33,326 nucleotides of DNA from an uncultured Thermococci archaeon (GTDB lineage: Archaea; Methanobacteriota_B; Thermococci; Thermococcales; Thermococcaceae). Where the stretch lies: assembly GCA_964487115.1 (NCBI GenBank), contig CAZAPD010000126.1, forward strand, positions 1-33,326, in the 5' to 3' direction. Below are positions 4,713 to 24,909 of this stretch, piece by piece (position 1 is the stretch's first letter; every line of letters begins with the position of its first letter). The notes beneath the pieces are model-generated. The model saw only the letters and a list, made by a program, of their open reading frames with translations, made no database searches and had not been told where the DNA came from. Made by a program: the position numbers and the translations under genes.

Positions 4713-4765
4713 AATTGAACCTAATCGCAAAGGAATATAAACTTCATCCTCAAGTTGGAAATGTC

Positions 4766-5560
4766 ATGAAGATTATAAGACGCAAGGTGAAAAATCTCTA
4801 CACTAAAAGCAGGATTCCAGGGGTAGATTATTCAGTCAATCAGTATGTTGGTTGTCAGTTTGGTTGCAGATACTGTTACGCCCGCTTTTTAGTACGCTGG
4901 AAGGATTATGGTCCTTGGGGTAGCTGGGTTGAAGTAAAGGAGAATGCCCCTGAACTTGCAAGGAGGCACGTTACTGGTAATATCGTTATGTCTACTGTCA
5001 GCGATCCATATCAGCCCATTGAAGCGGAGCTAAAACTTACACGGAGAGTCCTCAGTTCCATGGACAGAAGGAATGAACTCTCAATCCTCACTAAGTCCCC
5101 CTTGATACTTAGGGATACTGATATTCTTGGGCAATTCCGGAGTATGGAAGTTGGTCTAACTATAAACACCTTCAGCAGCAGGGAGAAGAGGCTATTTGAA
5201 CCGCGGACACCCCTTCAAAGGGCAAGGATAAATGCCCTAAAGGAGTTACACGAGGCAGGATTGAAGACTTATGTCTTCGTTAGTCCTATAATTCCCAACA
5301 TCACAGATGTAACTGTGGTGATAGAAGAAACCAGAGATTTTGCTGACAGCTATTTCTTTGAGGTTCTGAATCTAAAGGCTTCTGGAATAGAGTTCCAGCA
5401 GATTTTAAAGGAGAACTACCCAGAGAGTTATGACATCATGACCAGCTATGAAAAGTTTAACAGTTTTATTGAAAAACTAAAAAAGGAGATAAAAGCAATA
5501 GATGTTAAAACAGAGGGAATAGAAATACACCAAAAGGGATGGAGGGTTATCCCCCTCTGA
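4766..5560 (+). CDS. Radical SAM protein, spore-photoproduct-lyase-like (COG1533)
   Basis: YVGCQFGCRYCYA (CxxxCxxC), SDPYQPIE, ILTKS and FEP. Start set at ATG 4766. Confidence 0.88.
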   Translation: MKIIRRKVKNLYTKSRIPGVDYSVNQYVGCQFGCRYCYARFLVRWKDYGPWGSWVEVKENAPELARRHVTGNIVMSTVSDPYQPIEAELKLTRRVLSSMDRRNELSILTKSPLILRDTDILGQFRSMEVGLTINTFSSREKRLFEPRTPLQRARINALKELHEAGLKTYVFVSPIIPNITDVTVVIEETRDFADSYFFEVLNLKASGIEFQQILKENYPESYDIMTSYEKFNSFIEKLKKEIKAIDVKTEGIEIHQKGWRVIPL

Positions 5561-6854
5561 CTATGGATATAACCATTGAATTAACGTTCGTGCCTGTGGG
5601 ACCAGTCTTGAGTAGAGCTCCTACTTCTTCCAGAGCATGATATGCGTCATGGTTCCTGAGGACTTCATCAACATCAATACCGAGATTTTCAAGTTTTTTC
5701 AGTGTTGTGGAATCAACCACACCCCCTGCAGCATCGGTTGGACCGTCCGTGCCGTCCGTGTCAAAAGCTATGACAACAGTTCCCTTTAGACCCGAAATCT
5801 TTTTTGCCACTGAGAGAGCGAGCTCCTGACTTGGTCCCCCAAGACCTTTTGCGTCTCCAACGCTAACTGTAGTCTCCCCACCCATAATCAGAATCGTTGG
5901 TTTCTTGAATGGCCGGTTTTTACAGTATATCTCATGGATTACAGATCCAAGGAATGTCCCAACATCCTTTGCTTCTCCTTCCATTACGGTTGTCAGTATA
6001 TGTGCTCTAAATCCGAGTTCTTCTGCCTTTTTCTTTACGGCTATACACGATTTCTCAACGCTACCGATTATGAAGTTGTGAACATTCGGAGGATCACTCT
6101 TGAGGGTCTCATCCCTTTTTCCTTCCAGACCGAGTTTGATGTGCTGTCTGACGCTATCTGGAAGTTTATCCCACAATCCATAGCGGATGAGTATCTCATG
6201 GGCATCTCTGAATGTTGTTGGATCCTTCACTGTTGGTCCTGATGCTATAGCCTCAAGATTATCCCCTACGACATCTGAGATGATCAAACTTATCAAAGTT
6301 CCCTTCACATGTTTGGCCAGCTTTCCTCCCTTTACTTTTGAAATATGCTTTCTTACGGTGTTTATTTCATGTATTTTAGCTCCACTCCTTAGAAGGAGGT
6401 CATTGGTTTTAATCAGCTCTTCAAGGGTTATATCGTCCTCAGGTAGCTCAAAGATTGCTGAGCCTCCACCTGATATCAGAACAAGTAGAATATCATCTTT
6501 TCCTACTTTTTCGGCAAGTTCAAGGCCGAGTTTTCCTGCTTGGATGGAGTTTTCATCCGGTAGGGGATGCCCAGCTTCGATTATTTTAATTCCCTGCGGA
6601 CAGTTGGATGTATAGCCATATTTCGTGGCTACAACAGTTTCAGCCATTCTTCTCCCAAGGGCATCAAAGGCAGCTCTGCTCATGCCACATGCAGCTTTCC
6701 CAAAGGCAAGGAGATAAATGCTACCCCTCACTGGAAATCTCCTGCCTAAAATGTTAATCTCATCACCTTCAATCTTCAGAGAGTTTTTAACGGCTTTGTA
6801 TGGATCGGCAGCTTCAATAGCAGTTTTCATGAGCTCAAGGGCCAGTTCCTTCAT
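5547..6854 (-). CDS. gck: Glycerate 2-kinase (class II, MOFRL family)
   Basis: Motifs FGKAA, EAGHPLPD, LISGGGSA, SDVVGD.LEAIASGP, GGETTV, TDGTDGPTDAAG and TGPTGTNVN. Confidence 0.93.
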   Translation of the reverse strand: MKELALELMKTAIEAADPYKAVKNSLKIEGDEINILGRRFPVRGSIYLLAFGKAACGMSRAAFDALGRRMAETVVATKYGYTSNCPQGIKIIEAGHPLPDENSIQAGKLGLELAEKVGKDDILLVLISGGGSAIFELPEDDITLEELIKTNDLLLRSGAKIHEINTVRKHISKVKGGKLAKHVKGTLISLIISDVVGDNLEAIASGPTVKDPTTFRDAHEILIRYGLWDKLPDSVRQHIKLGLEGKRDETLKSDPPNVHNFIIGSVEKSCIAVKKKAEELGFRAHILTTVMEGEAKDVGTFLGSVIHEIYCKNRPFKKPTILIMGGETTVSVGDAKGLGGPSQELALSVAKKISGLKGTVVIAFDTDGTDGPTDAAGGVVDSTTLKKLENLGIDVDEVLRNHDAYHALEEVGALLKTGPTGTNVNSMVISIVRGG

Positions 6855-6860
6855 TAGGAC

Positions 6861-7877
6861 TCACCTACCTTTTAGTATTATCTTATCTGCCTCAATATCT
6901 TCAAGCGAAGAATTCCATCCTCCAACGATGTATCTCTCACCATCAGGCGTCTCAATGGTGATATTTGATATAACTTTACCTTCACTTTCAAAAAAGCCCG
7001 CAATTCTCCCAACAACATGTGCGGGCTTTTTTGTTCGTATAAACTTTCCAAAAATCTCGACTTCGCATCCTACAAGATTGAAGTTCTTTATATCCTCGAC
7101 CAGCTCCCTAATGCGGAGGTATTCCTTCGGGAATTTCAACTTCCTCTCTTCTTGGTAGATTGTTTTTCCTGTAGGCCATAGAACATGATAGAAATAGCGG
7201 TCAAGCATGAAGAGCAGATTGGGGTCTTGAATTATCAGAGCATAACCATGAAGTGATGAACCACTGGTCATCAAGGCATCATAGGGTGCATATACACCTA
7301 ATTCTCTATCTTGGATTACTATGAGTGGATCTCCGACTTCTCTTATCTTAACAATCCTTCCAACTTTCGGAACATCTTCATTGCCATATGCAAATATATG
7401 GACTTCGGTCTGCTTTTTTTCCTTTAGCTCTGCTTTGAATTTTCTAATAAGGGAGATCGGAGCAGCAATGGATATGTTCAACTGAGCATTGTTTATGGCT
7501 TTTCTGATGTAATCTTCTAAGGTTATCTTGCTTTTAACAACTAAGACCGTGTTTGTCTCTTCAATGGGGGTGTAGAGTTTTTCAAGCTCATCCTTAACAA
7601 GGGAAATCTTCTTCTCATACCTTTCTTTCATTGCATTTAGGACTCTGGCGGGTTCTACAGGAATTACTTTTTTTGGTCTGCTGCCACTGGTTGTTACAAA
7701 ACCTTTACTCATCAGGGTCCGGATGACATCATATATTCTTGGCTGGGGAACTTTCGAGAGGGTTGCAAGTTCCCCAGCCGTGAGAGCCCCCATCTTTATC
7801 AGGGTCAAGTATGCTCTAACTTCATACTCATTCAAACCCAGTTCCTTCATCAGGGCTCTCAGTTCCTTCTCTTGCAT
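6861..7877 (-). CDS. TrmB-family sugar-sensing transcriptional regulator (paralogue)
   Basis: N-terminal LGLNEYE..AYL.L...G..TA.E....S.VP.PRIYD and C-terminal effector domain ending in VGGWNSSLED. Confidence 0.92.
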   Translation of the reverse strand: MQEKELRALMKELGLNEYEVRAYLTLIKMGALTAGELATLSKVPQPRIYDVIRTLMSKGFVTTSGSRPKKVIPVEPARVLNAMKERYEKKISLVKDELEKLYTPIEETNTVLVVKSKITLEDYIRKAINNAQLNISIAAPISLIRKFKAELKEKKQTEVHIFAYGNEDVPKVGRIVKIREVGDPLIVIQDRELGVYAPYDALMTSGSSLHGYALIIQDPNLLFMLDRYFYHVLWPTGKTIYQEERKLKFPKEYLRIRELVEDIKNFNLVGCEVEIFGKFIRTKKPAHVVGRIAGFFESEGKVISNITIETPDGERYIVGGWNSSLEDIEADKIILKGR

Positions 7878-7886
7878 CCCAGACCC

Positions 7887-8999
7887 TCAGATTATGGCCT
7901 TTTCAGTACTTTTATCAAAGATATGGATGTTATCGAGGTCAATTACTATTCTAACCTTCTCTCCAATTGGAAGAGGAATATGGCCAGGCAGTTTGATCTT
8001 TATAAGTCTGTCCCCTATCAGTGCGTGAACTATTGTGTCAGTCCCAAGGGCTTCGATGAAGTCTACGACTCCCTCTATTCTTGCCGCTCTTGTAACATGC
8101 TCTAAAGTTGAAACACCTTCGATTGTCATGTGTTCTGGTCTTATTCCGAATATGACTGTCTTACCGATATATTTTCTCAGTAACTCCCCTAAATCTGCCG
8201 GGAGAGCGAGGTTGAATCCTTCTCCCTCAAGAACAATTCCTCCCTGCGTTTCCTTAACACTAACTTCCATGAGGTTCATTTCTGGAGCTCCGATGAATGT
8301 AGCTACGAACATCGATTTTGGTTTCAGATATACTTCGGTTGGTGGGCCTACTTGGAGTAAATGACCTTTGTTCATTACCACTATTCTATCACCCATTGTC
8401 ATAGCTTCAACCTGATCGTGGGTAACATAAACTGTTGTAACCTTAAGTTTTGTCTGAAGTTTCTTTATCTCTGCTCTCATAGTTACCCTGAGCTTGGCAT
8501 CGAGATTGCTTAGAGGTTCATCCATGAGCAGTACCTCAGGCTCCACGACGATTGCTCTTGCCACGGCCACACGTTGCCGCTGACCACCGCTGAGTTGAGC
8601 AGGGTATCTGTTGAGAAGCTCCCTGATCTGAAGGAGTTCAGCGGCCCATTTAACTCTCTCGTTAATCTCGTTTTTTGGATATTTCTTTATCTTCAAAGGA
8701 AATGCTATGTTATCATAGACCTTCATATGGGGCCAGACAGCATAGCTCTGGAAAACCATTGAGATGTTTCTGTCTTTTGGGGGGAGGTATGTTACTTCTT
8801 TATCCCCAAACCAGATTTTTCCTCCAGTAGGTTCCTCTAATCCAGCTATCATTCTCAGTGTTGTCGTCTTTCCGCAGCCGGACGGGCCAAGAAGCACTAA
8901 GAATTCCCCATCTCTTATTGTCAAGTTAAGCCCGTCAACAGCTTTAACCCTTCCATTGTCGAAATATTTCTTTAGATTTTCAAGCTTAACCTCGACCAT
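7887..8999 (-). CDS. Sugar ABC transporter ATPase (MalK-like, with TOBE domain)
   Basis: Walker A GPSGCGKT, LSGGQRQR, LLMDEPLSNLD, VTHDQ and GIRPEH. Confidence 0.96.
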   Translation of the reverse strand: MVEVKLENLKKYFDNGRVKAVDGLNLTIRDGEFLVLLGPSGCGKTTTLRMIAGLEEPTGGKIWFGDKEVTYLPPKDRNISMVFQSYAVWPHMKVYDNIAFPLKIKKYPKNEINERVKWAAELLQIRELLNRYPAQLSGGQRQRVAVARAIVVEPEVLLMDEPLSNLDAKLRVTMRAEIKKLQTKLKVTTVYVTHDQVEAMTMGDRIVVMNKGHLLQVGPPTEVYLKPKSMFVATFIGAPEMNLMEVSVKETQGGIVLEGEGFNLALPADLGELLRKYIGKTVIFGIRPEHMTIEGVSTLEHVTRAARIEGVVDFIEALGTDTIVHALIGDRLIKIKLPGHIPLPIGEKVRIVIDLDNIHIFDKSTEKAII

Positions 9000-9010
9000 T
9001 TGTTAACACC

Positions 9011-9829
9011 TCATTTGAGTGCTATCCCCCACATTGAGATTAAATACTTCCTTGCAACAGCCACATAAATCATAGCTGGAAATGCCATTATAAACGCGGC
9101 AGCGAATTTATAATAATCTGGTGCGGTTTGCATCAGGGTTAACATTAATGCAGGCAATGTTCTATGACTGAATGTTAGAACTGAAGCCGCAAAGACTTCA
9201 TTCCATGAACCGACGAAGGTAAACATTGCCGCGGCGGCTAATCCGGGCAGGGCTAAGGGAAGGGTTATTTTGAGGAATGACTGAAATCTTGTAAGACCGA
9301 ATACCATACCTGCCTCTTCCAATTCCGCAGAGGTGCCTGCAAAAATACTTGCAGTTATCAGGACTACGAGTGGCAGGGCACCAGCACTGTGTGCAAGAGC
9401 AACACCAAGTCTGGTATCAATGAGGTGTAGTCTGATATAGAGCATTACCAATGGCACTGCCATTATTGGAACCGGGAATATCTTAAGGGCCAGCATTCCA
9501 AGCTTTATAGTATCTTTTCCCGGGAATATGAATCTTGCTATAGAATACCCGGCAGGTAGCCCAAGTGCAAAGCTAATTATTATTGCAAGAGTCGCTACAA
9601 TAACACTGTTTTTCAGGGCATTCCATCCACCAAGTGTAAAGAGCAGCATTTTAATGGTCTTTAATGTAAAGTGAAACGGAATTATTCTATGGGGGTTGTA
9701 GTACTCATCTGGGACTCCAAATGCATATAGTGTGGATACCAAAAGAGGCACACCCATCCATATTATAACAATGAAGATAAAGGTGTAAAATCCTATTTTT
9801 CTCAGTTCATGCATTGTTTTTTCGTTCAT
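9011..9829 (-). CDS. Carbohydrate ABC permease (MalG-like)
   Basis: Six TM segments, EAA-loop LEEAGMVFG and SWNE. Confidence 0.93.
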   Translation of the reverse strand: MNEKTMHELRKIGFYTFIFIVIIWMGVPLLVSTLYAFGVPDEYYNPHRIIPFHFTLKTIKMLLFTLGGWNALKNSVIVATLAIIISFALGLPAGYSIARFIFPGKDTIKLGMLALKIFPVPIMAVPLVMLYIRLHLIDTRLGVALAHSAGALPLVVLITASIFAGTSAELEEAGMVFGLTRFQSFLKITLPLALPGLAAAAMFTFVGSWNEVFAASVLTFSHRTLPALMLTLMQTAPDYYKFAAAFIMAFPAMIYVAVARKYLISMWGIALK

Positions 9830-10683
9830 CTTCTCACCTCCAGATATTCCGCTTTCGTTAGCTTCAGATAGACTATACCGATGGCCAAGGACATAATTGC
9901 AATTAGCAGTGCATAGAATGCTCCAACTCCGTAGTCTTTAATCTGTGTTACCTGGTAATATGCTTCTCCTGCTAATACTGGAATGTCTCTTCCAACAAGA
10001 ACCCATACAATTCCGAAGATGCTGAATGCGTATATCGTTCTTAGTAGGAGAGCAGTTTGGATGCTTGGTTTTAATAGAGGTATTATTATACGCCTTAATC
10101 TTGTCCAGTAGCCAGCACCGAATACTTCAGCCGCTTCAATGTACTCTTGGCTTATCATCTGTAATCCTGCCAGGACAATTACAAATATTGTGACGGTTGA
10201 TCTCCAAAGCTCGACAAACACTAACATAATGAATTCTCTCGTATGGAACTGGTATCCAAAAAGCTGGATAGGAGCATGGATCAAACCTAAATTCAACAAT
10301 AATTTATTCATAAATCCACTTGGGGAAAGGATTGAATACCAAATTAAACCTGCAGCAATATCACTTAATGTCATAGGAATTATAAGGAGGGTTAGTGCAA
10401 CGTTTCTTCCTTTAAATACTTTATTCATTGCCAACGCGAATATAAGAGCCAGTATTAGCTGGCTGGGAACAATTATAACGACTAAACCCAAGGTATTTTT
10501 CAAAGCTGGCCAGAAATAGTAATTGTTTATTGCTCTGTGTACTGTTGCGAGGGAAAACCCTCCATTTTCATAGAAAACAAGCTTGATACCTTCTATCATA
10601 GGATACCCAATGAATATGCCCAAATATATCAACGCGGGAGCGACTAAAAGATAGGGAACATATTTTGATACTTTCTTCGCCAT
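9826..10683 (-). CDS. Carbohydrate ABC permease (MalF-like)
   Basis: LAGLQ.I..EYIEAAEVFGA EAA loop and multiple TM segments. Confidence 0.93.
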   Translation of the reverse strand: MAKKVSKYVPYLLVAPALIYLGIFIGYPMIEGIKLVFYENGGFSLATVHRAINNYYFWPALKNTLGLVVIIVPSQLILALIFALAMNKVFKGRNVALTLLIIPMTLSDIAAGLIWYSILSPSGFMNKLLLNLGLIHAPIQLFGYQFHTREFIMLVFVELWRSTVTIFVIVLAGLQMISQEYIEAAEVFGAGYWTRLRRIIIPLLKPSIQTALLLRTIYAFSIFGIVWVLVGRDIPVLAGEAYYQVTQIKDYGVGAFYALLIAIMSLAIGIVYLKLTKAEYLEVRR

Positions 10684-10742
10684 CTAATGACCCCCTCCAG
10701 TTGTTAAGACTTAGTTTTTGGGCTGGAATGGTAGAATCTGAT

Positions 10743-10761
10743 AAAAATTAAAGAAAAATAA
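10743..10761 (-). terminator. Oligo-T terminator/attenuator after the binding-protein gene
   Basis: Minus strand TTATTTTTCTTTAATTTTT just after the stop, in the 86-nt gap between binding protein and permease. Confidence 0.5.
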
Positions 10762-10769
10762 GAGCCGCC

Positions 10770-12113
10770 TCATGGTAGCGGTACACCGGCTTCTTGGAAG
10801 AGTTTGTCCAACTGTGCGCCTATGTCCTTTGTCACTTGTTTGGGATCTTGTCCCTGAAGGACAATCCTTCTAAATGCCTCTTTATAGAGCTCTCCGAACT
10901 GCCCGCCGTATTTTCCGAGGTTTGGAATCATAACGACCAATGCATCTGATGTTGATTCTTGAGCTGCAACACCTTTTGCAAGTACTTTGAGTGGTCCTTC
11001 AGGTAGTTCTGCACTTGCTTCTTTAACAACTGGGAAGAAGCCTGTTTGTGCGAGTGTTTCTGCTTGGACTTTGGGTGTTGTCAGATAGTCTATGAGCTTC
11101 CATGCTGCATCCTTGTTTGGAGCTCCTTTCGGAATAGCCAGACCAGCAACAACTAATATGAAACCTCTGCCTTTTGGTCCTCTTGGAACTGGAACAACGA
11201 CAAACTTGTCAGGTTCTTTAGTTATCGCATCCTTGATTCTTGCGGTGTGGTCCCATGCAATCCACACATCCCCTCTTAGAAGAGGATCTGCCATTTCATC
11301 CCATGTTGTGCTTGAGGGGTTTACATACTGCCAGAGGTTCTTGAGGTAATCCCACATTTCAATGGCTTCCGGTGAATCAAACTTCTTGACTTCGTAACCG
11401 GTGTATGAGGGGTATAAATATCCATGTAAGAACCTGTGGAACAATCCCTTAACTGGGAATCCAACGAGCTTTTTACCTGTTTTCTCATATATATTCTTTG
11501 CCCACGCTAAGAATTCATCATATGTCCACTTGCTTGTGCCCTGCACAACATCCTGTTCAGTTAAGCCACTTGGCAGATACTTGAAAGCTTCTTTGTTGAC
11601 GACCATCACATAGGTAGCACTCATCCATGGGACATATACCTTCTTGCCTCTTATAACGGAGTATTTTTGGAAGGTTGAGATGAAGGTTCTTCCTTTAAGT
11701 GTGGGCATGTTGCTCAAGTCCATAAGCCAGCCCTGTGAGTCATAGTAATCCATAGCCCCATGGAGGTCTCCAACCAAGTCTATGGTAACTTTGCCACTCT
11801 TCTCTTCAGCTGCAAGTCTTGTGCTCAGATCAAAGTAACTTATCGGTATGAAGTCTACATCTATCCCGGTCTGCTTTTTGAAGCCCGGTAGAACTGTGTT
11901 GAGAATAAAGGCTCTCTCAGCAGGAGGAACTAACTGGGTTGAAGCCCATACTACTTTGCCACCTGCTTTACTGGTGGTTGTTGGGCTTGACGTTGTAGTT
12001 GTAGCTTTGCTGGAACTTGTGGTTGTAGTACCTCCACCACTTATACAACCGCTTGCCACTATTGCAAGTCCCAAAACACCAATTAAAAATAAACTCAGTA
12101 GTTTCCTGTTCAT
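10770..12113 (-). CDS. Sugar ABC substrate-binding lipoprotein; candidate glycosylglycerate binder
   Basis: Signal peptide with ASGC lipobox-like Cys and a T/S-rich linker. Motifs STQL.P, GDLHG, PWMSATY, WDHTAR and GPKGRG...AGLAIPKGAPN. RBS GGAGGTG. Confidence 0.92.
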   Translation of the reverse strand: MNRKLLSLFLIGVLGLAIVASGCISGGGTTTTSSSKATTTTSSPTTTSKAGGKVVWASTQLVPPAERAFILNTVLPGFKKQTGIDVDFIPISYFDLSTRLAAEEKSGKVTIDLVGDLHGAMDYYDSQGWLMDLSNMPTLKGRTFISTFQKYSVIRGKKVYVPWMSATYVMVVNKEAFKYLPSGLTEQDVVQGTSKWTYDEFLAWAKNIYEKTGKKLVGFPVKGLFHRFLHGYLYPSYTGYEVKKFDSPEAIEMWDYLKNLWQYVNPSSTTWDEMADPLLRGDVWIAWDHTARIKDAITKEPDKFVVVPVPRGPKGRGFILVVAGLAIPKGAPNKDAAWKLIDYLTTPKVQAETLAQTGFFPVVKEASAELPEGPLKVLAKGVAAQESTSDALVVMIPNLGKYGGQFGELYKEAFRRIVLQGQDPKQVTKDIGAQLDKLFQEAGVPLP

Positions 12114-12153
12114 GGAACGACACCTCCATACGTCAAAGCATATTTCACAAAGG

Positions 12154-12193
12154 GATATATAAGGTTTATGTCTTAAACCACTAAAAGTGGTTG
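12154..12193 (-). promoter_or_regulatory. Promoter of the ABC-TrmB-gck operon: TATA box plus palindromic operator candidate
   Basis: Minus-strand TTATATATC at 12154-12162. Perfect palindrome AACCACT-AAA-AGTGGTT at 12176-12192. Confidence 0.7.
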
Positions 12194-12224
12194 TTTTTAC
12201 AAAAATGTAAAAGAGGGCCTCAAG

Positions 12225-13238
12225 CTAAAGATCAACATGAACAACTTTTCCTTTGTTGGAGGATTCGTAGGCCGCCAACACAACAGCCAAATTCTTTTTG
12301 GCGTCTTCTCCGCTTATAGGCACTTCTTTGTCTTTCAAAACCGCCATCACGAAGTTATTCACTATCGCACTTACATCTGGTCTGTCCCAGTATATTTTCT
12401 CTGCCCTGTCTTGATATACAGTGAAATCCGGGTAGGCAGTTCTGACATCAAGGAACCCCTCTCTTCCCACGAGATAATACTTTATTTCAAGCCCGTAGGA
12501 GTATCCCTTTGGATTGCCCCATCCTGCTGTGAGGACTGCTAAAATTCCATTTTTGAACTCTAAAATTGCTGTCCCAATGTCATCAACAGGAAAACCATAT
12601 ATCTTTGCTCCAATGTCAGCGTAGACCTTTTTTGGAAGACTCTTCGTTATCCAGAGGAGGGAATCTATTCCATGTGGTGCTGTGTCCATGAAGCCTCCTC
12701 CACCAGATTTGTTGATATCTAAAAACCAGCTCATGTCAAGACCCTGAAGCAGTATGGGGGGTTTTACATTCTCAGATATTGCGTGAATGTACTCCAGCGT
12801 TCCAATTTCCCCTGCTTCTACCATGTCCTTTGCCTTGATAAGGGGTTCAGTAAAGCGGGGATTGAATGGGAGCATCAACTTTACATCGTTTCTCTCTGCT
12901 GCTTTTATCACCTCATCAGCATCCTTAAGGGTGAGGGCTATGGGCTTTTCAAGAAGTATATGTTTGCCTTCTTCAGCCGCTCTAATTGCGACTTCCTTAT
13001 GCCTGTAAGTCTCAATGGCAATATATACAGCTTCAATATTTTTGTCCTTCAAGAGTTCTTCATAATTCCTGTAGAATTTAGCTCCATACTTCTTTGCTTC
13101 TCCTTTGGCCACGTCTGGATTGGCACCATCTCCAGAGATAGCACAGAGTTTTGCCCTTCTACTTTGTGCTATAGTGGAAGCGTATCTGAGGGCATGGGGA
13201 TGGGCATAGCTTATTATTCCAAAATTAATCTTTTTCAT
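12225..13238 (-). CDS. Gfo/Idh/MocA oxidoreductase, variant N-terminus
   Basis: GKHILLEKP and GGG..D..PH. The nucleotide-binding loop reads GIISYAHPH instead of GxGxxG. Confidence 0.9.
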   Translation of the reverse strand: MKKINFGIISYAHPHALRYASTIAQSRRAKLCAISGDGANPDVAKGEAKKYGAKFYRNYEELLKDKNIEAVYIAIETYRHKEVAIRAAEEGKHILLEKPIALTLKDADEVIKAAERNDVKLMLPFNPRFTEPLIKAKDMVEAGEIGTLEYIHAISENVKPPILLQGLDMSWFLDINKSGGGGFMDTAPHGIDSLLWITKSLPKKVYADIGAKIYGFPVDDIGTAILEFKNGILAVLTAGWGNPKGYSYGLEIKYYLVGREGFLDVRTAYPDFTVYQDRAEKIYWDRPDVSAIVNNFVMAVLKDKEVPISGEDAKKNLAVVLAAYESSNKGKVVHVDL

Positions 13239-14245
13239 ACTCTCACCACCTCTCCACTTCTGGCACTTTCTTTAGCTTTTTCAGCAATTTTAAGTGCTAT
13301 TAGGGCATCATGTGCCGTAACAGTTGGTTCTTCGTCTTTTTTAATACATTTAAGGAAATGTCTTAGTTCTCTCTCAAAGGCATCTGGAAACGTTGAGAGC
13401 AGTGGTGAAAACCGTGGCATTTCAAAGTTTGCTTTTGCAACCCCCACAACAGGGGTGTCAAGAGGTGTATACCTTATTCTTCCGTTTCTCCCGATTATAT
13501 CAACATGATGGTAAAAAACTCCATATCTGGAGGGATAGGGATATGCCCAGCTTACTTCAGCTATACCGGTTTTTCCTCCTTCGAACTTTATCATCATGAC
13601 GAAGTGATCGAAAGTGTTGTTCACTTTGGCTTCCTTTTTTATAGCCTTTCCAGCTGCCAGCACTTCAACCGGCTCGCTATCGAAGAACCATCTGAGGAAA
13701 TCAGTTACATGAACTCCGAGGTCAAGGGCAACTCCACCACTCTTATTCTCATTCCAGTACCAGTAGTGTGCAGGGAAGGGAAGATTCTGAACCTCTGTTT
13801 TTCTTATATGCATTGGTAGGATGTTCCTTTTTCTAATCACATCTTTCATCTGAACCCATCTCTTGTCAAAACGCCTAACATGTCCAACAAAAAGCTTGAG
13901 CTCTTCTTTTTCAGCAGTTTTAATCATTTTCTCTGCTTCTTCAGTAGTTAGTGCTATAGGTTTCTCAACTATGACGTGTTTTCCAGCTTTTAGTGCTCTT
14001 ACAGCGATTTCTGCATGTGTGTATGTTGGGGTTAAAATCTCGACAATATCAAAATCCAGATCAAAAAACTCATCGAGATTCTGGAAAGCTTTGGCATTAA
14101 AGGCTTTAGCTCCTTCTCGGGCTCTTTCCTCATCTATGTCTGCGCATGCTACTACTCTAACGCTTTCTATGTTTTTTAAGGCTGGCTTATGGGCCAAGTT
14201 GAATATATTTCCACAGCCCACTACTCCGATTTTCAGCTCCTTCAT
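13235..14245 (-). CDS. Gfo/Idh/MocA oxidoreductase
   Basis: IGVVGCGNI, GKHVIVEKP and SGGVALDLGVH. ATG at 14245 has RBS GGGGA. Stop overlaps the next gene's start. Confidence 0.92.
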   Translation of the reverse strand: MKELKIGVVGCGNIFNLAHKPALKNIESVRVVACADIDEERAREGAKAFNAKAFQNLDEFFDLDFDIVEILTPTYTHAEIAVRALKAGKHVIVEKPIALTTEEAEKMIKTAEKEELKLFVGHVRRFDKRWVQMKDVIRKRNILPMHIRKTEVQNLPFPAHYWYWNENKSGGVALDLGVHVTDFLRWFFDSEPVEVLAAGKAIKKEAKVNNTFDHFVMMIKFEGGKTGIAEVSWAYPYPSRYGVFYHHVDIIGRNGRIRYTPLDTPVVGVAKANFEMPRFSPLLSTFPDAFERELRHFLKCIKKDEEPTVTAHDALIALKIAEKAKESARSGEVVRV

Positions 14246-14269
14246 GGGTATCCCCAAAGGGGGTGGGGC

Positions 14270-14316
14270 ACAAAAGATATATAACCCTTTCTAAAATAAA
14301 CCACTTTGGATGGTTG
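14270..14316. promoter_or_regulatory. Bidirectional TATA box with a second copy of the operator candidate
   Basis: GATATATAA at 14276-14284 has purine-rich BRE-like flanks on both strands. TAAACCACT-TTGGA-TGGTTG at 14297-14316. Confidence 0.65.
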
Positions 14317-14338
14317 CATTTGAAGAAGGTGAGGAAGC

Positions 14339-15481
14339 ATGAAGGTGATGGTTGGAATACCCAGCTACAACAATGGAGACACAATCTCCTTTGTGGTTGA
14401 GCAGGCAGCGAAAGGACTGAAGAAATACTTCGGCGGAGGCATAGTGGTCAACGCCGATGGTGGAAGTAAGGATAATACGAGAGAAGCTGTCCTGACTGCC
14501 AGAGTTCCTAACGGTGTTGAGGTAAGGAGTTTTATATATAGATGGCCGATTCCGGGCAAGGGCAGTGCTATGAAAGAGCTCATGGAAGTTGCGAGGGATG
14601 AAGGGGTTGATGCACTCGTTTTTGTTGACAGCGATTTGAGGAGTATAACTCCAGAGTGGATATATAAGTTTGCAAAGCCGATTGAGGAGGGTTATGACTT
14701 CGTTGCCCCTCTGTATATAAGGTATAAATGGGATGGCACAATAACCAATAACATCGCATACCCCATGACAGCATCGCTCTACGGCAAGAACATCAGACAG
14801 CCAATAGGAGGGGATTTTGGAGTCAGTGCTAAGCTTATAGATGTTTATCTTGAAGATGAAGATGTATGGAGAACTGATGTAGCCCGCTTTGGAGTTGATA
14901 TTTTCCTAACAACAACTGCTATAGCCAACAAATTTGAAGTAATTCAGACGGCACTTGGGCTGAAGATCCATGATCCTAAAGATCCTGCAGCTTCACTCGG
15001 TCCTATGTTCAATCAAGTGGTCGGAACATTGTTCATGCTTATGTTGAAGTATGAAGACGTATGGAAGGGGGTTAGAAATCTTGAGAATGTTCCTGTATGG
15101 GGGGAGCTGATTACAGGAGAACCCGAGCCTGTCAATGTGACATTGAGTCTCTTAAAGGAGAGAGCTCAGGAGTTGTTCAGAGAAAACGAGACAGTTCTGA
15201 AGAAAGTATTATCAGACGAAACTCTAAAGGGCGTTAGAGAAGCCCTGAAAACATTTGAGTTTGATGATGTCCTGTGGAGTCATGTGCTCTATGATGGTGC
15301 TGTGGCATACAAGAGAAATATGCTGAAAAATGCTGAACCACTTATACCGCTTTATTTTGCTAAAACTGCAGATTTCATTGAGAAAACAAAAGACATGAGC
15401 ACTCTTGAGGCTGAAAAATTGATAGAGACGAGGGCAAAGGTGTTCTTAGAGGAGAAAGACTACTTGTTACAACACTGGTAA
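14339..15481 (+). CDS. GT-A glycosyltransferase, glucosylglycerate/mannosylglycerate synthase-like (Ggs/Mgs)
   Basis: Motifs IPSYN, DGGSKD, PGKG, DSD (DxD), SITPEWI, DGTIT, RQPIGG and FGVD. From memory these parallel PGKG, DAD, DAMIT, QPLGG and WGID of Rhodothermus Mgs. Confidence 0.8.
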   Translation: MKVMVGIPSYNNGDTISFVVEQAAKGLKKYFGGGIVVNADGGSKDNTREAVLTARVPNGVEVRSFIYRWPIPGKGSAMKELMEVARDEGVDALVFVDSDLRSITPEWIYKFAKPIEEGYDFVAPLYIRYKWDGTITNNIAYPMTASLYGKNIRQPIGGDFGVSAKLIDVYLEDEDVWRTDVARFGVDIFLTTTAIANKFEVIQTALGLKIHDPKDPAASLGPMFNQVVGTLFMLMLKYEDVWKGVRNLENVPVWGELITGEPEPVNVTLSLLKERAQELFRENETVLKKVLSDETLKGVREALKTFEFDDVLWSHVLYDGAVAYKRNMLKNAEPLIPLYFAKTADFIEKTKDMSTLEAEKLIETRAKVFLEEKDYLLQHW

Positions 15482-15493
15482 TTCTCTCCACTT

Positions 15494-17041
15494 TTATTTT
15501 TTGAGTATCCTGCGAAAGATAACTATGATCACTCCAAGAATTATCAGAACTGCAAGCAGTTCTAATATTTTCGAAGATATGAGCTCTTTCACAGCTTTTG
15601 ATTCACGTATGGAGGTAGTAGTGTTGATAACGTGGAATGAGAGATTCTTTTGCAGGGTTTCATTACCTTTTTTTGCTACTATATAGAAAGTGATACTATT
15701 ATTCAAAACAACTTGTATCTCACCTTCTTTTGATTTAGCAAAATTTGAGGAGACTATATCCCCGTTTGTGTACCAATAGATTCTTGCTTTTTCATGCCGT
15801 CTAAGAACTTTTGTTGTTGCATTGCTCTTAAGGATGATATAGAGAGGTTCCTCAAATTTGGGATTTGAGGCTTTTATAAGTTTATAAATCATCCTCATCT
15901 TCTCCCAATTCACCGTTTTCCAGTCATTTAAGAATATTCCCCCTGTATCTCTGCTTTCTGGATTTAAACACCAATAAAAGAAATTGTAAATTCTTTTTCT
16001 TATGAGCCATTTAGAAAATTCATCCTGCCAGCTTCTATCAAGTCCCTTATAGGTACCACCCCATTCGCCGATGACTATAGTGTAGTTAAGTTCCCTGAGG
16101 TATCCAAAGTGGGTTTCCCAGATAGGGGGTAGATTATCGGGAAAGTTTTGGGATCTAAAATAATTCATCATATATACACTGGGGCCATAAACATGAGGGG
16201 AGTAAACTATTTTCTCCTTTGGTAACCTTACGGGGTATTTTCTCACTCCCATCAAATTTTCTCCCCAGAATGCCCACCATCTATTTTTCTTGATTACATC
16301 ATCGATATCTGGTACATGGGTATATTGAGTTCCTTCAATAAATATTAACCATTGAGGAGCAACTTTAAGTATCTCCCCTCCTACCCTCTCAGCAAATAAT
16401 CTGAAATCTGTTTTTTCATTTCCAGTTCCCCATGAAGCTTCATCATGAGGCTCGTTTTTTATGTCTGCTCCAATAACGTTATAGTACTTCCTAAATTTCT
16501 TTGCGAGAAAAACCCAGTCCGAGATATATTTCTCTTCAGGATAACTTTTTGTATGCCAAAGAGGTTCTATTTCCTTGCATCCGATACTATGGTAATCAAG
16601 GAGAACATAAAGATCGAGCTTTTCTGCTTCAACAATAATTTTCTCCATTACCTCCAAAGAGGTGAGATTTTTTAGGTCTGGATTGATATCATAGTTTATC
16701 CTATATGAATTTGGTCTTGCTCCATGTATTGTTTCACTGCAGAAAGGTAATCTTATAGCATTAAAACCCAGTTTCTTTACATCTAAAAGAATTTCACGCC
16801 AGTTTCTGTAATCTAAACCGTAGACTATATGATCTGAGGTTTCAAAACCAAACCAATTCACACCATGAATATAAATGGGTATTTTTTCTCCATTTGTTTT
16901 ATTTACCTGGTAAATGACCCCGTTTTCGGAGAAATAGGAAACCTCTGATTTTGAGTCAAAAATTTGGGAAGCCGCCACTGATTGTGACAGGGTAAGTATG
17001 ACCAAAAAAGCAATTACAAAGTAATGGAATGCTTTTCTCAT
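15494..17041 (-). CDS. GH5 endo-beta-1,4-glucanase, secreted and C-terminally membrane anchored
   Basis: GVNWFGFE, FNAIRLPF, acid/base KNEPH, YSPHVYGP and nucleophile IGEWGG. Signal peptide and C-terminal TM with basic tail. ATG 17041 has RBS GAGGGG. Confidence 0.92.
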   Translation of the reverse strand: MRKAFHYFVIAFLVILTLSQSVAASQIFDSKSEVSYFSENGVIYQVNKTNGEKIPIYIHGVNWFGFETSDHIVYGLDYRNWREILLDVKKLGFNAIRLPFCSETIHGARPNSYRINYDINPDLKNLTSLEVMEKIIVEAEKLDLYVLLDYHSIGCKEIEPLWHTKSYPEEKYISDWVFLAKKFRKYYNVIGADIKNEPHDEASWGTGNEKTDFRLFAERVGGEILKVAPQWLIFIEGTQYTHVPDIDDVIKKNRWWAFWGENLMGVRKYPVRLPKEKIVYSPHVYGPSVYMMNYFRSQNFPDNLPPIWETHFGYLRELNYTIVIGEWGGTYKGLDRSWQDEFSKWLIRKRIYNFFYWCLNPESRDTGGIFLNDWKTVNWEKMRMIYKLIKASNPKFEEPLYIILKSNATTKVLRRHEKARIYWYTNGDIVSSNFAKSKEGEIQVVLNNSITFYIVAKKGNETLQKNLSFHVINTTTSIRESKAVKELISSKILELLAVLIILGVIIVIFRRILKK

Positions 17042-17115
17042 TGTATCCCCCTCTTTGGACTCTCCAACTGATGATCCCACTCCCAGTGGTTATGGATGTC
17101 TCACGAGATTATCTT

Positions 17116-18078
17116 CTATTGCACAATATAACATGCCACCCAATGATCCTTCTCAACTTCAAGTAGTTCGGGTCTCTTCTTTTGACAAATTTCCATTTTC
17201 TTCGGACATCTGGGAGCATAGCGACAGCCATCTATTGCATAAATTCCTTTTTCCTCTTTTTCAGGTTTGATTCTTCTCTTAAGTTCCCACTTGACATTCA
17301 GATCGGGGACACTTTGAAGTAGCATCTGGGTGTATGGATGAAGAGGATTGTGGAAAACTTTTTTGATATCCCCCATCTCCACTATTGTTCCTCTGTACAT
17401 TATAATAGCCTTATCGCTTATGTAATATCCCAGGGATAAGTCATGAGTGATAAATAAAACTGACATGCCATATTTGTTTCTAAATTCTCCTAAGAGATTT
17501 AGAACACCTATCCTAACAGATGCATCGAGCATTGAGACTATTTCATCGGCAATCAAAAGCTCCGGACGTAAAATGAGTGCTCTGGCAAGTAACACTCTCT
17601 GAAGCTGTCCCCCACTTAGTTGGTGTGGATATTTTCCAAGAACATTTTTTGGATTAAGTTTAACGCTCCTTAGAGCCCCTTCTATGAGAGTATTTTGTCT
17701 TTCTCTATCTGCATCAGTGAGAAGATTTGTAAATATGATATCAAAGAGGTGATCTACTTTGTAGAGTGGATTTACACTGGAAAATGGATCTTGGAAGACT
17801 CCTTGAACATTTTGATAGTAGGCTTTGAGATTAACACCTTTTAGTTTAGATACATCCTGACCTCTGAATAAGATTTGTCCTGAAGTTGGAGTTAAAAGAC
17901 GTAGTATTAGTTTTCCGATAGTTGTTTTTCCACTTCCGCTCTCTCCAATCAGGGAAACAATTTCTCCTCTATTAATTGTAAAATTAACATTATCCACAGC
18001 CCTAATTTCAAAACCTTTTATAAAACCTGTTTTAAAGACCTTTGTAAGGTTTTTAACCTGTAATATTGCATTTTTCAC
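17116..18078 (-). CDS. Opp/Dpp-type ABC ATPase (OppF/CbtF-like)
   Basis: GESGSGKT, LSGGQ, HPYT and C-terminal C.YAPRC...C...VAC. GTG start 18078 with RBS GGGGGTGA. Confidence 0.93.
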   Translation of the reverse strand: MKNAILQVKNLTKVFKTGFIKGFEIRAVDNVNFTINRGEIVSLIGESGSGKTTIGKLILRLLTPTSGQILFRGQDVSKLKGVNLKAYYQNVQGVFQDPFSSVNPLYKVDHLFDIIFTNLLTDADRERQNTLIEGALRSVKLNPKNVLGKYPHQLSGGQLQRVLLARALILRPELLIADEIVSMLDASVRIGVLNLLGEFRNKYGMSVLFITHDLSLGYYISDKAIIMYRGTIVEMGDIKKVFHNPLHPYTQMLLQSVPDLNVKWELKRRIKPEKEEKGIYAIDGCRYAPRCPKKMEICQKKRPELLEVEKDHWVACYIVQ

Positions 18079-18082
18079 TATC

Positions 18083-19039
18083 TCACCCCCTATACATGTG
18101 ACATGCAACGAAATGATTTCTCCCAATTTTAATCATATCGGGCTCCTCTTTACAGATTTGCATTGCATATGGACACCGCGGATGAAGTCTGCATCCTGAA
18201 GGCGGTTTTAGAAGAGCGGGAGGCTCTCCGGGAATTTCTTGGAGCTTTATCTCTCTATAGCTAATCCCCAACCTTGGCAGTGAATTTAGGAGCATCTGAG
18301 TGTATGGATGAGCAGGTTCGTTGATGATTTTTTCTGTTGGCCCAATTTCAACGACTTTTCCTGCATACATTATCATTATTCTATCCGCTATTTTGTCAAG
18401 AAGTCCCATATCATGAGTGATAAAGATTATTGAATCAACAATTTTTTCTTCCTTGATGAATGAATAAAGAAGCTCCAGAATTATCCTCTGATTTGTTACA
18501 TCTAAAGCAGATGTTATTTCATCAGCTATTAAAAGTTTTGGATCGAGTAGTGTTGAAACAACCATGACAGCTCTTTGTTTCATTCCTCCACTGAGTTCTA
18601 TGGGATACATATTGGCTACTTGTTCGGAGAGACCCACCATTTTAAGGCGTTCTCTCAGCTTGTTCTCAATCTCCTCTCTGTCCTTATACCCATGTTCTTT
18701 TGCCAAATCGCGAACTATTTCTTTAATCCTTTTTGTTGGGTTAAGGGCATTAAGAGAATACTGGGGAATTATAGAGAGTTTGGTGTACCTAATTTTCCGA
18801 TATTCTTTTTCATTGAGTGTCATTATATTTTTCCCGTCAAGAATAGCTTCCCCACCCATATGTACCATTGGAGGTTTTCTCAAAACTAAGGAGTTAACCA
18901 AAGTAGATTTACCGCAACCACTCTCTCCTGCAATCCCAAATATCTCTCCTTTTTTAACCTCAAAGCTAACTCCATCCACAGCTTTTACGAATCCTAAGGG
19001 GGTTTTGTAATATATTTTAAGGTTATTGACCTTAAGCAT
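18083..19039 (-). CDS. Opp/Dpp-type ABC ATPase (OppD/CbtD-like)
   Basis: GESGCGKS, LSGGMKQR, HPYT and GCRLHPRCP. ATG 19039. Confidence 0.93.
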   Translation of the reverse strand: MLKVNNLKIYYKTPLGFVKAVDGVSFEVKKGEIFGIAGESGCGKSTLVNSLVLRKPPMVHMGGEAILDGKNIMTLNEKEYRKIRYTKLSIIPQYSLNALNPTKRIKEIVRDLAKEHGYKDREEIENKLRERLKMVGLSEQVANMYPIELSGGMKQRAVMVVSTLLDPKLLIADEITSALDVTNQRIILELLYSFIKEEKIVDSIIFITHDMGLLDKIADRIMIMYAGKVVEIGPTEKIINEPAHPYTQMLLNSLPRLGISYREIKLQEIPGEPPALLKPPSGCRLHPRCPYAMQICKEEPDMIKIGRNHFVACHMYRG

Positions 19040-19040
19040 G

Positions 19041-19964
19041 TCATTCCCTCCTGAGTCTTGGATTGAATATCTCATCGAGACCTGTGTTTATGAGATACAG
19101 TCCTGTGATTAATACAGCAATTACAAGTCCGGGGGGAATTGCCCACCACCAGTATCCAAGGTTTATAGCATTCCAGAGAACTGCCTGTTGAAGCATTATA
19201 CCCAATGACATGCCTCTTGTAGGTCCAAGACCTATAAAATCCAGACCCACTGCCGCGAGAATTGATCCACCAAACTGTAAGATGAATACCATAAAAACGT
19301 AAGACATCATGTTTGGAAGTATTTCTCCGAATAGTATCTTTGATTCGCTCATTCCACTAATTCTTGCAAGGTCTACAAATCCCCTGCGTTTTAATGAAAG
19401 AGTTTGAGCTCTTACTGCTCTTGCTGTCCATGGCCATGCTGTTAGGCCTATAATCAGGCTTTCTATCCCAACCCCTCTGTAAGGTAAATATGCCGCTATT
19501 ATAATAAGCAGAGCCATTGTTGGAATTACAAGCATTATATTTGTGATCATCATTAAACTTTCATCAGCCCAACCCCCTTTATATCCCGCCACAAAACCTA
19601 TTAACAATCCTATTAATGTGGCTAATCCTCCGGCAATTAGTCCTATAAACAGTGATGACCTTAGTCCATATACAAGTTGAGCATATATATCCCTACCAAA
19701 ACTATCCGTTCCAAGATAATGTTTTACCTCAACTGCCCCCTGAGGAGTAAAAATTTCTCCAACAGAACCCGGTTTTAGTGATGGAAGTGAGGGTTTTGGG
19801 GCTATTCTTTCACCAAATTTCACTGGATAGTATCCCATACTGTCAAAAGGAGTAAGCAGTGGGCCTATCATTGCCCATAACACAAAAATTAATATTATCA
19901 CAAACCCAACCTTGAATTTTGTATTCCCAAAAGCAATTCTGAGGGTTTCTTTACTTATTTTCAT
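19041..19964 (-). CDS. Opp-type ABC permease (OppC/CbtC-like)
   Basis: H.LGTD.FGRD, AR.VRAQ, ILPN and NPRLR. ATG 19964. Confidence 0.93.
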   Translation of the reverse strand: MKISKETLRIAFGNTKFKVGFVIILIFVLWAMIGPLLTPFDSMGYYPVKFGERIAPKPSLPSLKPGSVGEIFTPQGAVEVKHYLGTDSFGRDIYAQLVYGLRSSLFIGLIAGGLATLIGLLIGFVAGYKGGWADESLMMITNIMLVIPTMALLIIIAAYLPYRGVGIESLIIGLTAWPWTARAVRAQTLSLKRRGFVDLARISGMSESKILFGEILPNMMSYVFMVFILQFGGSILAAVGLDFIGLGPTRGMSLGIMLQQAVLWNAINLGYWWWAIPPGLVIAVLITGLYLINTGLDEIFNPRLRRE

Positions 19965-19965
19965 T

Positions 19966-20967: not shown

Positions 20968-21010
20968 CTTGTACCCCTCGCTCATAGCTTGGATATTTTT
21001 AACCATAAGG

Positions 21011-21024
21011 AAAAATAAAATAAA
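21011..21024 (-). terminator. Oligo-T terminator/attenuator after the OppA-type gene
   Basis: Minus strand TTTATTTTATTTTT in the gap between binding protein and permease. Confidence 0.45.
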
Positions 21025-21050
21025 TGTAGGCTTAAGGTAAGTGGATGTTT

Positions 21051-22940: not shown

Positions 22941-22995
22941 GAGATATACCCCCATTTATATTAGACAGTGTTTGAATTTATCATTTTATAATCTA

Positions 22996-23072
22996 CATCA
23001 AATATTTATAAACTTTATGCCAAAATTATATTTAGTGTGATCTCTTATAAATTTGGGAAAAATTTATAAACT
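22996..23072. promoter_or_regulatory. Divergent promoters for the cbt-like operon and bmnA
   Basis: Minus-strand AAAG-TTTATAAATA (about 23002-23016) and plus-strand GAAAAA-TTTATAAA (23057-23070). Confidence 0.65.
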
Positions 23073-23114
23073 ATAGTATCTAAATACAGGTCAGATAAAA
23101 TTGGGGGTGGCAGA

Positions 23115-24647: not shown

Positions 24648-24690
24648 TTTTTAAATAATTTTTGTGATTTATATACACGGGTGAGTTAAT

Positions 24691-24909
24691 ATGAAAACGA
24701 TAGCAGTCGACGAAGAAACTTGGGAAGCAATAAAGCAACTTAAAACTAAACTTGATGCTAAATCTTACACAGAAGTTCTCAAAAAGCTTATAGAAGTATG
24801 GCATTCAGTAGAGCTTGACACTAAGGCAGAAAAAGTTGTAATTGAAGATGAAGATGCTGATTTTGTAATTTCAATTCTTAAAAACAAAAAGAAGGGAAAA
24901 AATGACTGA
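24691..24909 (+). CDS. VapB-like ribbon-helix-helix antitoxin/DNA-binding protein
   Basis: MKTIAVDEETWEAIKQLK...SY.EVL..LI is an archaeal RHH-type N-terminus. Lies directly upstream of a PIN gene. Confidence 0.7.
   Translation: MKTIAVDEETWEAIKQLKTKLDAKSYTEVLKKLIEVWHSVELDTKAEKVVIEDEDADFVISILKNKKKGKND

Follow-up and report, generated by a model that had tools for sequence, protein, structure and literature searches.

A conserved transferase and redox gene module of the Thermococcaceae with a most likely role in glycosylglycerate salvage

Introduction

The principal solute of Thermococcales under salt stress is mannosylglycerate (MG). The breakdown of MG and of glucosylglycerate (GG) by hydrolases of glycoside hydrolase (GH) family 63 is known (PMC5381378), as are GG phosphorylases including YcjM of Escherichia coli (PMC8950772, PMC6599011). 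The single-step synthase Ggs is described as a biosynthetic enzyme working in the forward direction in vitro (PMC3736172), while the UgtR regulon of Thermotoga maritima (TM1228-TM1235) is listed as a hypothetical, uncharacterised sugar pathway (PMC3750489). The titles and abstract openings found in the open-access literature mention neither an archaeal route of MG uptake or breakdown nor an assignment of the locus described here. This locus belongs to a Thermococcaceae genome (G000; 96% complete) of a hot-vent archaeon, where contig C126 constitutes the window analyzed (33,326 nucleotides). It combines a sugar ATP-binding cassette (ABC) importer, a TrmB-family regulator and a glycerate kinase (gck) with two genes of the Gfo/Idh/MocA oxidoreductase family (gfoA and gfoB) and a divergent Ggs-like glycosyltransferase.

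An initial annotation of this DNA had proposed that a glycosylglycerate is imported and cleaved by the transferase running backwards, with the kinase trapping the glycerate. Our analysis shows that the module is real and conserved, and that its role is most likely found in glycosylglycerate salvage. The former idea is plausible at its core, yet it assigned no role to the most distinctive part of the module, the redox pair, and is thereby incomplete.

Inheritance within the Thermococcaceae

Within 97 genomes of the family, the binding protein of the importer was present in 53, the transferase in 57, gfoA in 60, gck in 89, mpgS in 63 and the regulator TrmBL5 in 49 (in none of nine within genus g3). 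After exclusion of 18 genomes for completeness <90% or contamination >5%, 79 near-complete genomes remained for co-occurrence analysis, in which Fisher p-values overstate the associations; related genomes are not independent. All 43 importer genomes of this set carry both transferase and gfoA, congruent with the previously postulated co-inheritance of transferase and importer. Presence of transferase and gfoA agrees in 77 of the 79 genomes, and an intact transferase was never encountered without gfoA (47/48, the exception G081 being decayed). The two are even kept together where importer and gck have moved away: transferase, gfoA and gfoB are adjacent in all nine genus-g3 genomes, with importer and gck located elsewhere, as well as in four importer-less genomes (G009, G025, G079, and G084), all of which encode MpgS. 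In G025, transferase, gfoA, gfoB, and gck are joined with no importer match. Between genera, gfoA and gfoB are 71-87% identical. The fixed core of the module is transferase-gfoA-gfoB.

The kinase gene is a looser associate. It ends the operon in our window, as initially annotated, and is found intact behind trmB in 19 loci of genera g1 and g2, but it is unlinked in the remaining four of six genera and, given its presence in 89 of the 97 genomes, not module-specific. In genus g1, mpgS was detected in 14 of 19 genomes with transferase versus 8 of 31 without.

Several loci depict rearrangements, i.e., a split gfoB with a promoter insert (L054), a GH38 gene inserted between malK copies (L065), a 1.3-kb insert between gfoA and gfoB (L075), a decayed module (L088), and a gck remnant (L031). 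In G052 and G069, gfoA has pfkB and fucI-like genes next to it, which were considered as pathway members and rejected, being ancestral neighbors left by deletion of the transferase.

Gene content and layout of the module

The open reading frame list and the family profile search placed all genes named in the initial annotation at the coordinates and in the families given there. Encoded on the minus strand are gck, a MOFRL-family glycerate 2-kinase (5547..6854; PF13660 and PF05161; PDB 1x3l and 2b8n; a single copy in the genome), the TrmB-family regulator with effector domain (6861..7877; PF01978 and PF11495), a MalK-type ABC ATPase (7887..8999; PF00005, PF17912), a MalG-like permease (9011..9829; PF00528), a MalF-like permease (9826..10683; PF00528), a solute-binding lipoprotein (SBP, 10770..12113; PF01547, SBP_bac_1), gfoB (12225..13238), and gfoA (13235..14257). 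The Ggs-like transferase, a homologue of single-step glycosylglycerate synthases (GT2/MGS_GT; PF00535 and PF21969), is divergent from gfoA on the plus strand (14339..15481). Intergenic gaps from SBP to gck amount to 86, -4, 11, 9, and 6 nt, and gfoA and gfoB overlap by 4 nt; due to these short gaps, SBP-to-gck plausibly forms one operon and gfoA-gfoB a second. The true start of gfoA is probably the ATG at 14245, and the database form of the protein has 336 amino acids.

The best PDB match of the binding protein reached an E-value of only 2.5e-6, with no close or ligand-bound solved relative, whereas its orthologues, including that of the Thermotoga UgtE cluster, share 60-68% identity in Thermoprotei and 50-58% in bacteria. 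Gck carries DUF4147 and MOFRL across its full length and matches PH0495 (E 1e-164) and 2b8n (“glycerate kinase, putative”; E 4e-107), with two lineage-specific NCBIfam models remaining below cut-off. In agreement with the initial annotation, the profile search matched no glycoside hydrolase family, GH63 included, between 5547 and 15481; two GH38 genes and one GDE/MGH1-like gene are located on other contigs of G000, and GHL6 had no match in this genome. A sigma-70/terminator scan, a method not suited to archaea, returned nothing.

Around the module, a radical SAM gene (4715-5560) converges on gck with a 14-nt overlap and is a recurrent neighbor in genus g1. On the other side, a GH5 gene begins 12 nt past the transferase as part of a block of lower GC content (15494-25400; 0.378 versus 0.428) hosting this GH5 cellulase, a family-5 ABC importer and a GH1 glycosidase between transferase and pfkB. 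This block is probably an inserted beta-glucan island, considering its lower GC content and the direct adjacency of transferase and pfkB in 19 related loci. It is followed (25423-33187) by the pfkB kinase, a GH42/GH5-like hydrolase, a second family-1 sugar importer, TreT, and TrmB, the last two scoring above their NCBIfam cut-offs. Elsewhere in G000, a further cluster of its own (L269, C37:274-6691) consists of a family-1 importer, a fucose-isomerase-like gene and the GDE/MGH1-like hydrolase.

The orthologous importer in other lineages

Extension of the analysis by a binding-protein alignment scan retained 80 of 114 loci (12 Thermococcales, 52 Thermoprotei, and 16 bacterial, none of them from Thermus), complemented by 20 further Thermotogota loci taken from ~41 strong matches in 129 genomes. 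Many of the loci outside Thermococcales end at contig ends. The transferase is found beside the importer in 16/52 Thermoprotei, 8/16 bacterial, and 16/20 Thermotogota loci and is, in most of these lineages, co-oriented with it in one operon. A variable gene accompanies them: GHL6 in 22/52 Thermoprotei loci, GH38 in 9/16 bacterial (11 by clustering) and 15/20 Thermotogota loci, an MggS-like gene in 16/20 Thermotogota loci, and a true MgS homologue in 2/16 bacterial loci. Combinations of GHL6 with gck (four loci), GHL6 with transferase (13) and transferase only (three) were observed. The initial annotation had predicted that this importer would occur with either GH63 or the transferase. This profile was not seen, as no GH63 was found among the recurring neighbors scanned, and the actual partners (GH38, GHL6, Mgs) usually coexist with the transferase.

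Next to the importer, gck is found in Thermococcaceae, four Thermoprotei loci, the Thermotogota locus L279, and the deltaproteobacterium locus L167. Some importer loci encode synthases as their only enzymes, namely L165 (Mgs plus Ggs-like) and L278 (Ggs-like plus MggS-like), or the Ggs-like enzyme as the only one (L128, L152, L153, L282, and L283). No orthologue of gfoA or gfoB at ≥40% identity was detected in 88 importer loci outside Thermococcales. Judged by its place in the gene order, the Gfo pair fills the slot that mannoside-processing enzymes appear to occupy in other lineages and is the closest partner of the transferase. A metagenome scan for bacterial gfoA relatives, its patterns being too generic, gave an orthologous module in one of 80 loci, itself Thermococcales-like; a search with a bacterial gfoA relative in 391 genomes of the phylum of G099 gave one weak match, and a bacterial transferase-gfoAB cassette was not established. 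Two JGI proteins (P0099 and P0459) agree in the length of their longest contig (36934), which may be chance, as comparable agreements occur for contigs too short to carry both genes.

Exact look-up of the Thermotoga genes identified TM1229, mannosylglucosylglycerate synthase, an alpha-mannosidase and an RpiR regulator. Two bacterial importer operons are followed by a true mannosylglycerate synthase together with either a Ggs-like gene (L165:3579-10167) or gck (L167:10001-19667), which suggests a catabolic use of MgS. A ~740-aa GHL6 protein stands beside the importer in L091 (4433-6634) and 21 other Thermoprotei loci, four of them with gck; it distantly resembles the Paenibacillus-type alpha-L-fucosidase structure 6tvk and is a candidate new mannosylglycerate hydrolase. 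In one genome of genus g5, mpgS has one GH38 and two GH130 genes at a distance of less than 8 kb (L267:3093-11414).

The transferase

The structural model of the transferase (predicted local distance difference test, pLDDT, 95.2) aligns over its full length with MgS of Rhodothermus marinus (TM 0.72-0.76) at a structural identity of 17-18%, compared with a partial alignment to GpgS (0.45-0.48). The modeled fold is that of a GT-A enzyme of the MgS type, carrying the DxD motif (DSD 97-99) and an MgS-like C-terminal helical domain. Its acceptor loop R128-YKW-D132-GT-I135-T136 aligns with R131...D135-AM-I138-T139 of MgS and not with GGRVT of GpgS. R128, D132, I135, T136, QPIGGD, FGVD, and H211 are conserved. 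Nevertheless, the protein is not an MgS proper (GT78): PF21967 (MGS_C) was not matched and MGS_GT scored 34 bits, whereas the L165 protein reaches 299 bits and matches MGS_C as well. It is 47% identical to TM1229 and was placed as sister to the importer-linked Thermotogota enzymes in a quick tree of 55 rows (SH-aLRT 94).

Some members of the family are labeled glucosylglycerate synthase in databases. As the family is large and has copies far from importers, the donor sugar and nucleotide are not readable from sequence. T. barophilus also encodes the transferase (P0597). Its mpgS and mpgP mutants are described as having no MG and, as far as that account goes, no other osmolyte detected (PMC4932500), which argues that the transferase is not a backup synthase under the conditions reported there.

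The Gfo pair

GfoA and GfoB both keep the EKP (98-100 and 97-99, respectively) and DxxxH motifs (179-183 and 185-189). GfoA is canonical with the usual GxGxx (GCGNIF), whereas GfoB carries SYAHPH at positions 10-15 instead of GxGxxG. The best PDB match of GfoA is 3ezy (TM0414; E 3e-37). The GfoB model (pLDDT 91.7) matches GenD2 (Z 40.3, root-mean-square deviation 2.0 over 323 residues) and KanD2 (Z 39.4), followed by levoglucosan and inositol dehydrogenases at Z 36-37 and, among many similar rows, GH188 at Z ~35 (root-mean-square deviation 2.4-2.6). Inositol dehydrogenases are thus 3-4 and GH188 ~5 Z units below the top; a common fold does not in itself demonstrate a function. Neither protein passes any named family cut-off: both score best on the IolG model TIGR04380 (191.5 and 148.8 bits versus a cut-off of 355), and the BT_2158/2159 models gave 32-52 bits against cut-offs of 650-750. 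Equivalents of GH188 His321, expected in the loop preceding the last helices, and Tyr136 are not evident in either protein by alignment spacing, the positions being estimated rather than superposed.

Tandems of a canonical and an SFAHxH-type Gfo protein (25-35% identity) were found in 8 of 12 Thermoprotei loci fetched (L312-L319), several of them beside GH127, GH116, GH106, FGGY kinases, TIM-barrel isomerases, or family-5 importers. The tandem looks like an obligate two-gene unit, and the gene context presents the pair as a reusable sugar-redox unit which often coexists with real glycosidases. Since its neighbors there include ordinary glycosidases as well as kinases and isomerases, interconversion is a better fit for the pair than cleavage.

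Operator and TrmBL5

The motif reported initially in both promoter regions corresponds to the palindrome AACCAC-N5-GTGGTT. It occurs with no mismatch at 12176..12192, where it precedes the importer TATA box (TTATATA, 12156..12162, minus strand) by 13 nt, and with one mismatch at 14299..14315, preceding the TATA box of gfoA by 14 nt. The latter box (14278..14284), located between the divergent genes, is apparently common to gfoA and the transferase; both boxes were assigned by sequence reading and are kept in relatives. Within the window alone, three matches at ≤2 mismatches versus 0.94 expected are not significant (6/100 shuffles reach three). Across relatives, the motif is clearly genuine: AACCAY-N5-GTGGTT precedes gfoA in 39/39 loci of genomes with the TrmB paralogue and 0/12 without, and precedes SBP in 38/38 and 0/8, respectively, with the negative loci belonging mostly to one genus plus G025, G052, and G069 and so representing few independent events. 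A relaxed scan of the whole G000 genome gave two other matches only, both apparently inside coding sequence. The site precedes the TATA box by 12-14 nt in the case of SBP and by 14-16 nt in that of gfoA. The operator is situated upstream of the TFB recognition element for gfoA and importer but over the expected start of the transferase transcript, as placed by the -26/27 rule (PMC4158304).

The TrmB paralogue was assigned as orthologue of T. barophilus TrmBL5 (TERMP_01835) on account of a near-exact match to its published primer translation (LLFMFDRYF versus LLFMLDRYF, residues 221-229; 8/9 identical within this single short segment), and it is likewise encoded at the end of a sugar ABC cluster. 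The role of TrmBL5 is described as unclear, its cluster as up at high pressure and hardly altered by maltose (PMC10667668).

The architecture of the operator, a 6-5-6 palindrome, is shared with the Thermococcales glycolytic motif (TGM) of TrmBL1/Tgr (TATCAC-N5-GTGATA). The module operators differ from it at ≥4/12 positions, have the half-site AACCAC, and track TrmBL5; no promoter TGM at ≤1 mismatch was found within the module. Canonical TGM sites do occur in G000 at fbp, tpi, aldolase and sugar-uptake promoters (C1:11675, C1:38113, C68:2535, C80:4953, and others), showing that a TrmBL1-type regulon exists alongside. Contigs of RNA libraries (four runs of one study) span all L060 genes and break between gfoA and transferase in 4/4; as they give no level, strand or start and may stem from DNA, they were not used.

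Proposed pathway and alternative explanations

A glycosylglycerate, as named in the initial annotation, is the probable substrate, since three glycerate-glycoside synthase families and a glycerate kinase recur beside one importer family. On this basis we tentatively put forward, as a reading which falls short of being probable, a TrmBL5-controlled salvage of sugar-glycerate solutes. The ABC system would import MG and probably GG, and the MG pool of the cell itself may enter as well. One Gfo enzyme would oxidize a ring hydroxyl of MG (at C2, or at C3 with subsequent enolization at C2), and the other would reduce the keto sugar to the gluco form under recycling of NAD(H), yielding GG. The Ggs-like transferase running backwards would then convert GG and a nucleoside diphosphate (NDP) into NDP-glucose and D-glycerate, and Gck would form 2-phosphoglycerate, thereby pulling the uphill transferase step. 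Ligand, redox chemistry, glucose specificity, and reverse direction of the module are predictions from sequence and gene context. Reverse running, as already suggested in the initial annotation, is adopted here because some importer operons have synthases as only enzymes (L165, L278, L128, L152, L153, L282, and L283, besides L167 with Mgs and then gck); the loci themselves are observed, and their context argues for the direction. Salvage of their own MG would explain why transferase and gfoAB stay together in importer-less MG producers.

A number of observations weigh against this proposal. Enzymes of the GH38/GHL6 type occupying the same slot presumably cleave the mannoside directly, so that parsimony favors direct cleavage, and reversal of an NDP-sugar transferase is uphill. 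Fold matches do not choose C2 over C3 chemistry, the top ones being annotated as dehydrogenases of glycosides and of levoglucosan. In five of the near-complete genomes with transferase, mpgS is absent. Furthermore, G052, G067, and G069 (81%, 88%, and 99% complete, respectively) retain intact gfoA and gfoB with no transferase found, in G052 even as a gfoA-gfoB-gck operon; both genes are under purifying selection there, with nonsynonymous-to-synonymous substitution ratios (dN/dS) of ~0.04-0.06 compared with a median of 0.05, pairwise values which cannot date the transferase losses. The transferase of the importer-less G084 has a dN/dS of ~0.26, and the module of G081 is decayed. Finally, following the rule for the TrmB family that a site upstream activates and a site downstream represses (PMC4158304, PMC4706686), the operator geometry predicts activation of uptake and repression of the transferase. 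The transferase may hence be regulated opposite to uptake, which is at odds with a simple co-induced pathway. Nevertheless, the 12-16 nt spacing of the module operators is below the 19 nt measured at the TGM-fbp promoter of G000, so that all three promoters may instead be repressed sterically.

The chemistry of the Gfo pair is the point at which the most serious competing explanation departs. Here, the pair would act as an NAD+-dependent glycosidase freeing glycerate from MG (C3 oxidation, heat-aided elimination, hydration, and reduction), and imported GG would be left to the transferase as a branch of its own. We consider this unlikely but close behind the proposed pathway, as it accounts better for the survival of gfoAB in the three transferase-less genomes and fits the occurrence of slot enzyme and transferase singly or together in other lineages. 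The top structural matches of GfoB, glycoside and levoglucosan dehydrogenases, we presume to act on C3. GH188 offers a precedent, being described as a Gfo-fold enzyme that substitutes for a missing glycosidase in catabolic clusters (PMC10755693). Against this stand the lack of a lyase or hydratase gene in the module and of an evident GH188-type His and Tyr (the latter ~29 residues past the EKP lysine), and the transferase of importer-less genomes is left unexplained; in addition, all three transferase-less genomes have a GDE-like match (partial in G052) as a possible other outlet for GG. Elimination from an alpha-mannoside is moreover stereochemically awkward. Rather improbable is a substrate other than a simple glycosylglycerate, be it a di-glycoside like mannosylglucosylglycerate (MGG), a compound of inositol or some unrelated mannoside. 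The binding protein without ligand-bound relative, the MggS-like genes of Thermotogota pointing to MGG there, the best, though far sub-threshold, scores of both Gfo proteins on IolG, and a near-universal gck unlinked in four of six genera would accommodate it. The recurrence of synthase families and gck beside the importer speaks for glycosylglycerate, the Thermotoga counterpart is UgtEFGK and not an inositol transporter, and no MggS-like match was found in Thermococcaceae loci.

The remaining explanations concern the direction and the sufficiency of the transferase. That it works forward, forming glycosylglycerate from NDP-hexose and glycerate, with TrmBL5 activating gfoAB and importer and repressing the transferase from the same site, has a low probability. 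It would suit the operator geometry and the in vitro direction of Ggs, yet conflicts with the osmolyte data reported for the T. barophilus mpgS mutants, with the co-orientation of transferase and importer in most other lineages, and with the short operator spacing. Even less probable is the initial version, in which the reversed transferase alone cleaves both MG and GG, leaving the Gfo genes an accessory role: loci with importer and transferase only (L128, L152, L153, L282, and L283) exist in other lineages, but Thermococcaceae never keep an intact transferase without gfoA, both Gfo proteins are highly conserved across genera, and L165 keeps Mgs as well as a Ggs-like gene, implying that the latter does not handle MG. 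Least probable of all is cleavage by a conventional hydrolase encoded elsewhere. A GDE-like gene is present in 41/43 importer genomes, in many of those from g1/g2 at a distance of three genes from the transferase, and its product passes the PF22422 MGH1-like cut-off by a partial match (contig C37), while GH38 adjoins the module in L049, L058, and L065. However, the GDE-like gene has gains and losses of its own, being absent from G012, G025, and G096 but retained by seven genomes without transferase, and on contig C37 of G000 it is accompanied by a separate importer; GH38 is found in only 18/43 importer genomes.

For the salvage pathway via epimerization, the broader consequences are doubtful: recycling of MG without hydrolase or phosphorylase by a two-enzyme Gfo epimerase and a reversed synthase that retains the energy of the bond in NDP-glucose, an importer family serving as a hitherto unrecognized salvage system in Thermococcales, Thermoprotei, and Thermotogota, a mostly catabolic function of Ggs, Mgs, and MggS, and the widespread canonical plus SFAHxH tandem as a general glycoside redox-epimerase. 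If it is true that Ggs-family enzymes run backwards in vivo, many solute-synthesis annotations would need revision. In any case, the module gives the question of MG uptake and breakdown named genes in genetically tractable hosts, and provides testable functions for four orphans, i.e., TrmBL5 with its operator, the Thermotoga UgtR regulon, the Thermoprotei GHL6 proteins, and the recurring Gfo/Idh/MocA tandem.

Comparison with known systems

The described breakdown of MG and GG proceeds by GH63 hydrolases (MgH/GgH), the GH13_18 GG phosphorylase of the E. coli ycj operon, or E. coli MngAB. None of these cleaving enzymes is encoded in the module. The ycj operon resembles it in coupling an importer with a GG-cleaving enzyme, and also includes a Gfo-type redox epimerization step. 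The energy-conserving route had been presented in the initial annotation as one not known to have been described; as GG phosphorylases already represent such a route (PMC8950772), novelty lies in the enzymes and not in the principle.

With GH109, GH177, GH179, GH188, BT2158/BT2159, DgpA, and LgdA, the Gfo pair shares the fold and the Lys/acid/His core. It differs from NAD+-dependent glycosidases and 3-keto-glycoside pathways in having no family-level match, no lyase gene in the module, and no evident extra catalytic His/Tyr.

The link of an NDP-sugar synthase to uptake is known from TreT and the trehalose importer in Thermococcales and Thermotoga. TreT is reversible. Unlike the transferase studied here, it has a GT4/GT-B fold and does not need a redox pair; in T. 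maritima, treTR is described as strongly induced on trehalose (PMC3750489). Single-step synthase fold and acceptor loop connect our transferase to Ggs of Petrotoga mobilis and Persephonella marina and to Rhodothermus MgS, a likeness drawn by family and not from the characterized Ggs sequences. While these enzymes are described as biosynthetic, the Thermococcales transferase is linked to importer and kinase. The closest counterpart is the T. maritima UgtR regulon, a catabolic-looking operon with an orthologous importer (binding protein 55-57% identical) and a related transferase, TM1229; in the Thermococcales module, the Gfo pair, gck, and TrmBL5 take the place of the GH38, MggS, and RpiR of that regulon.

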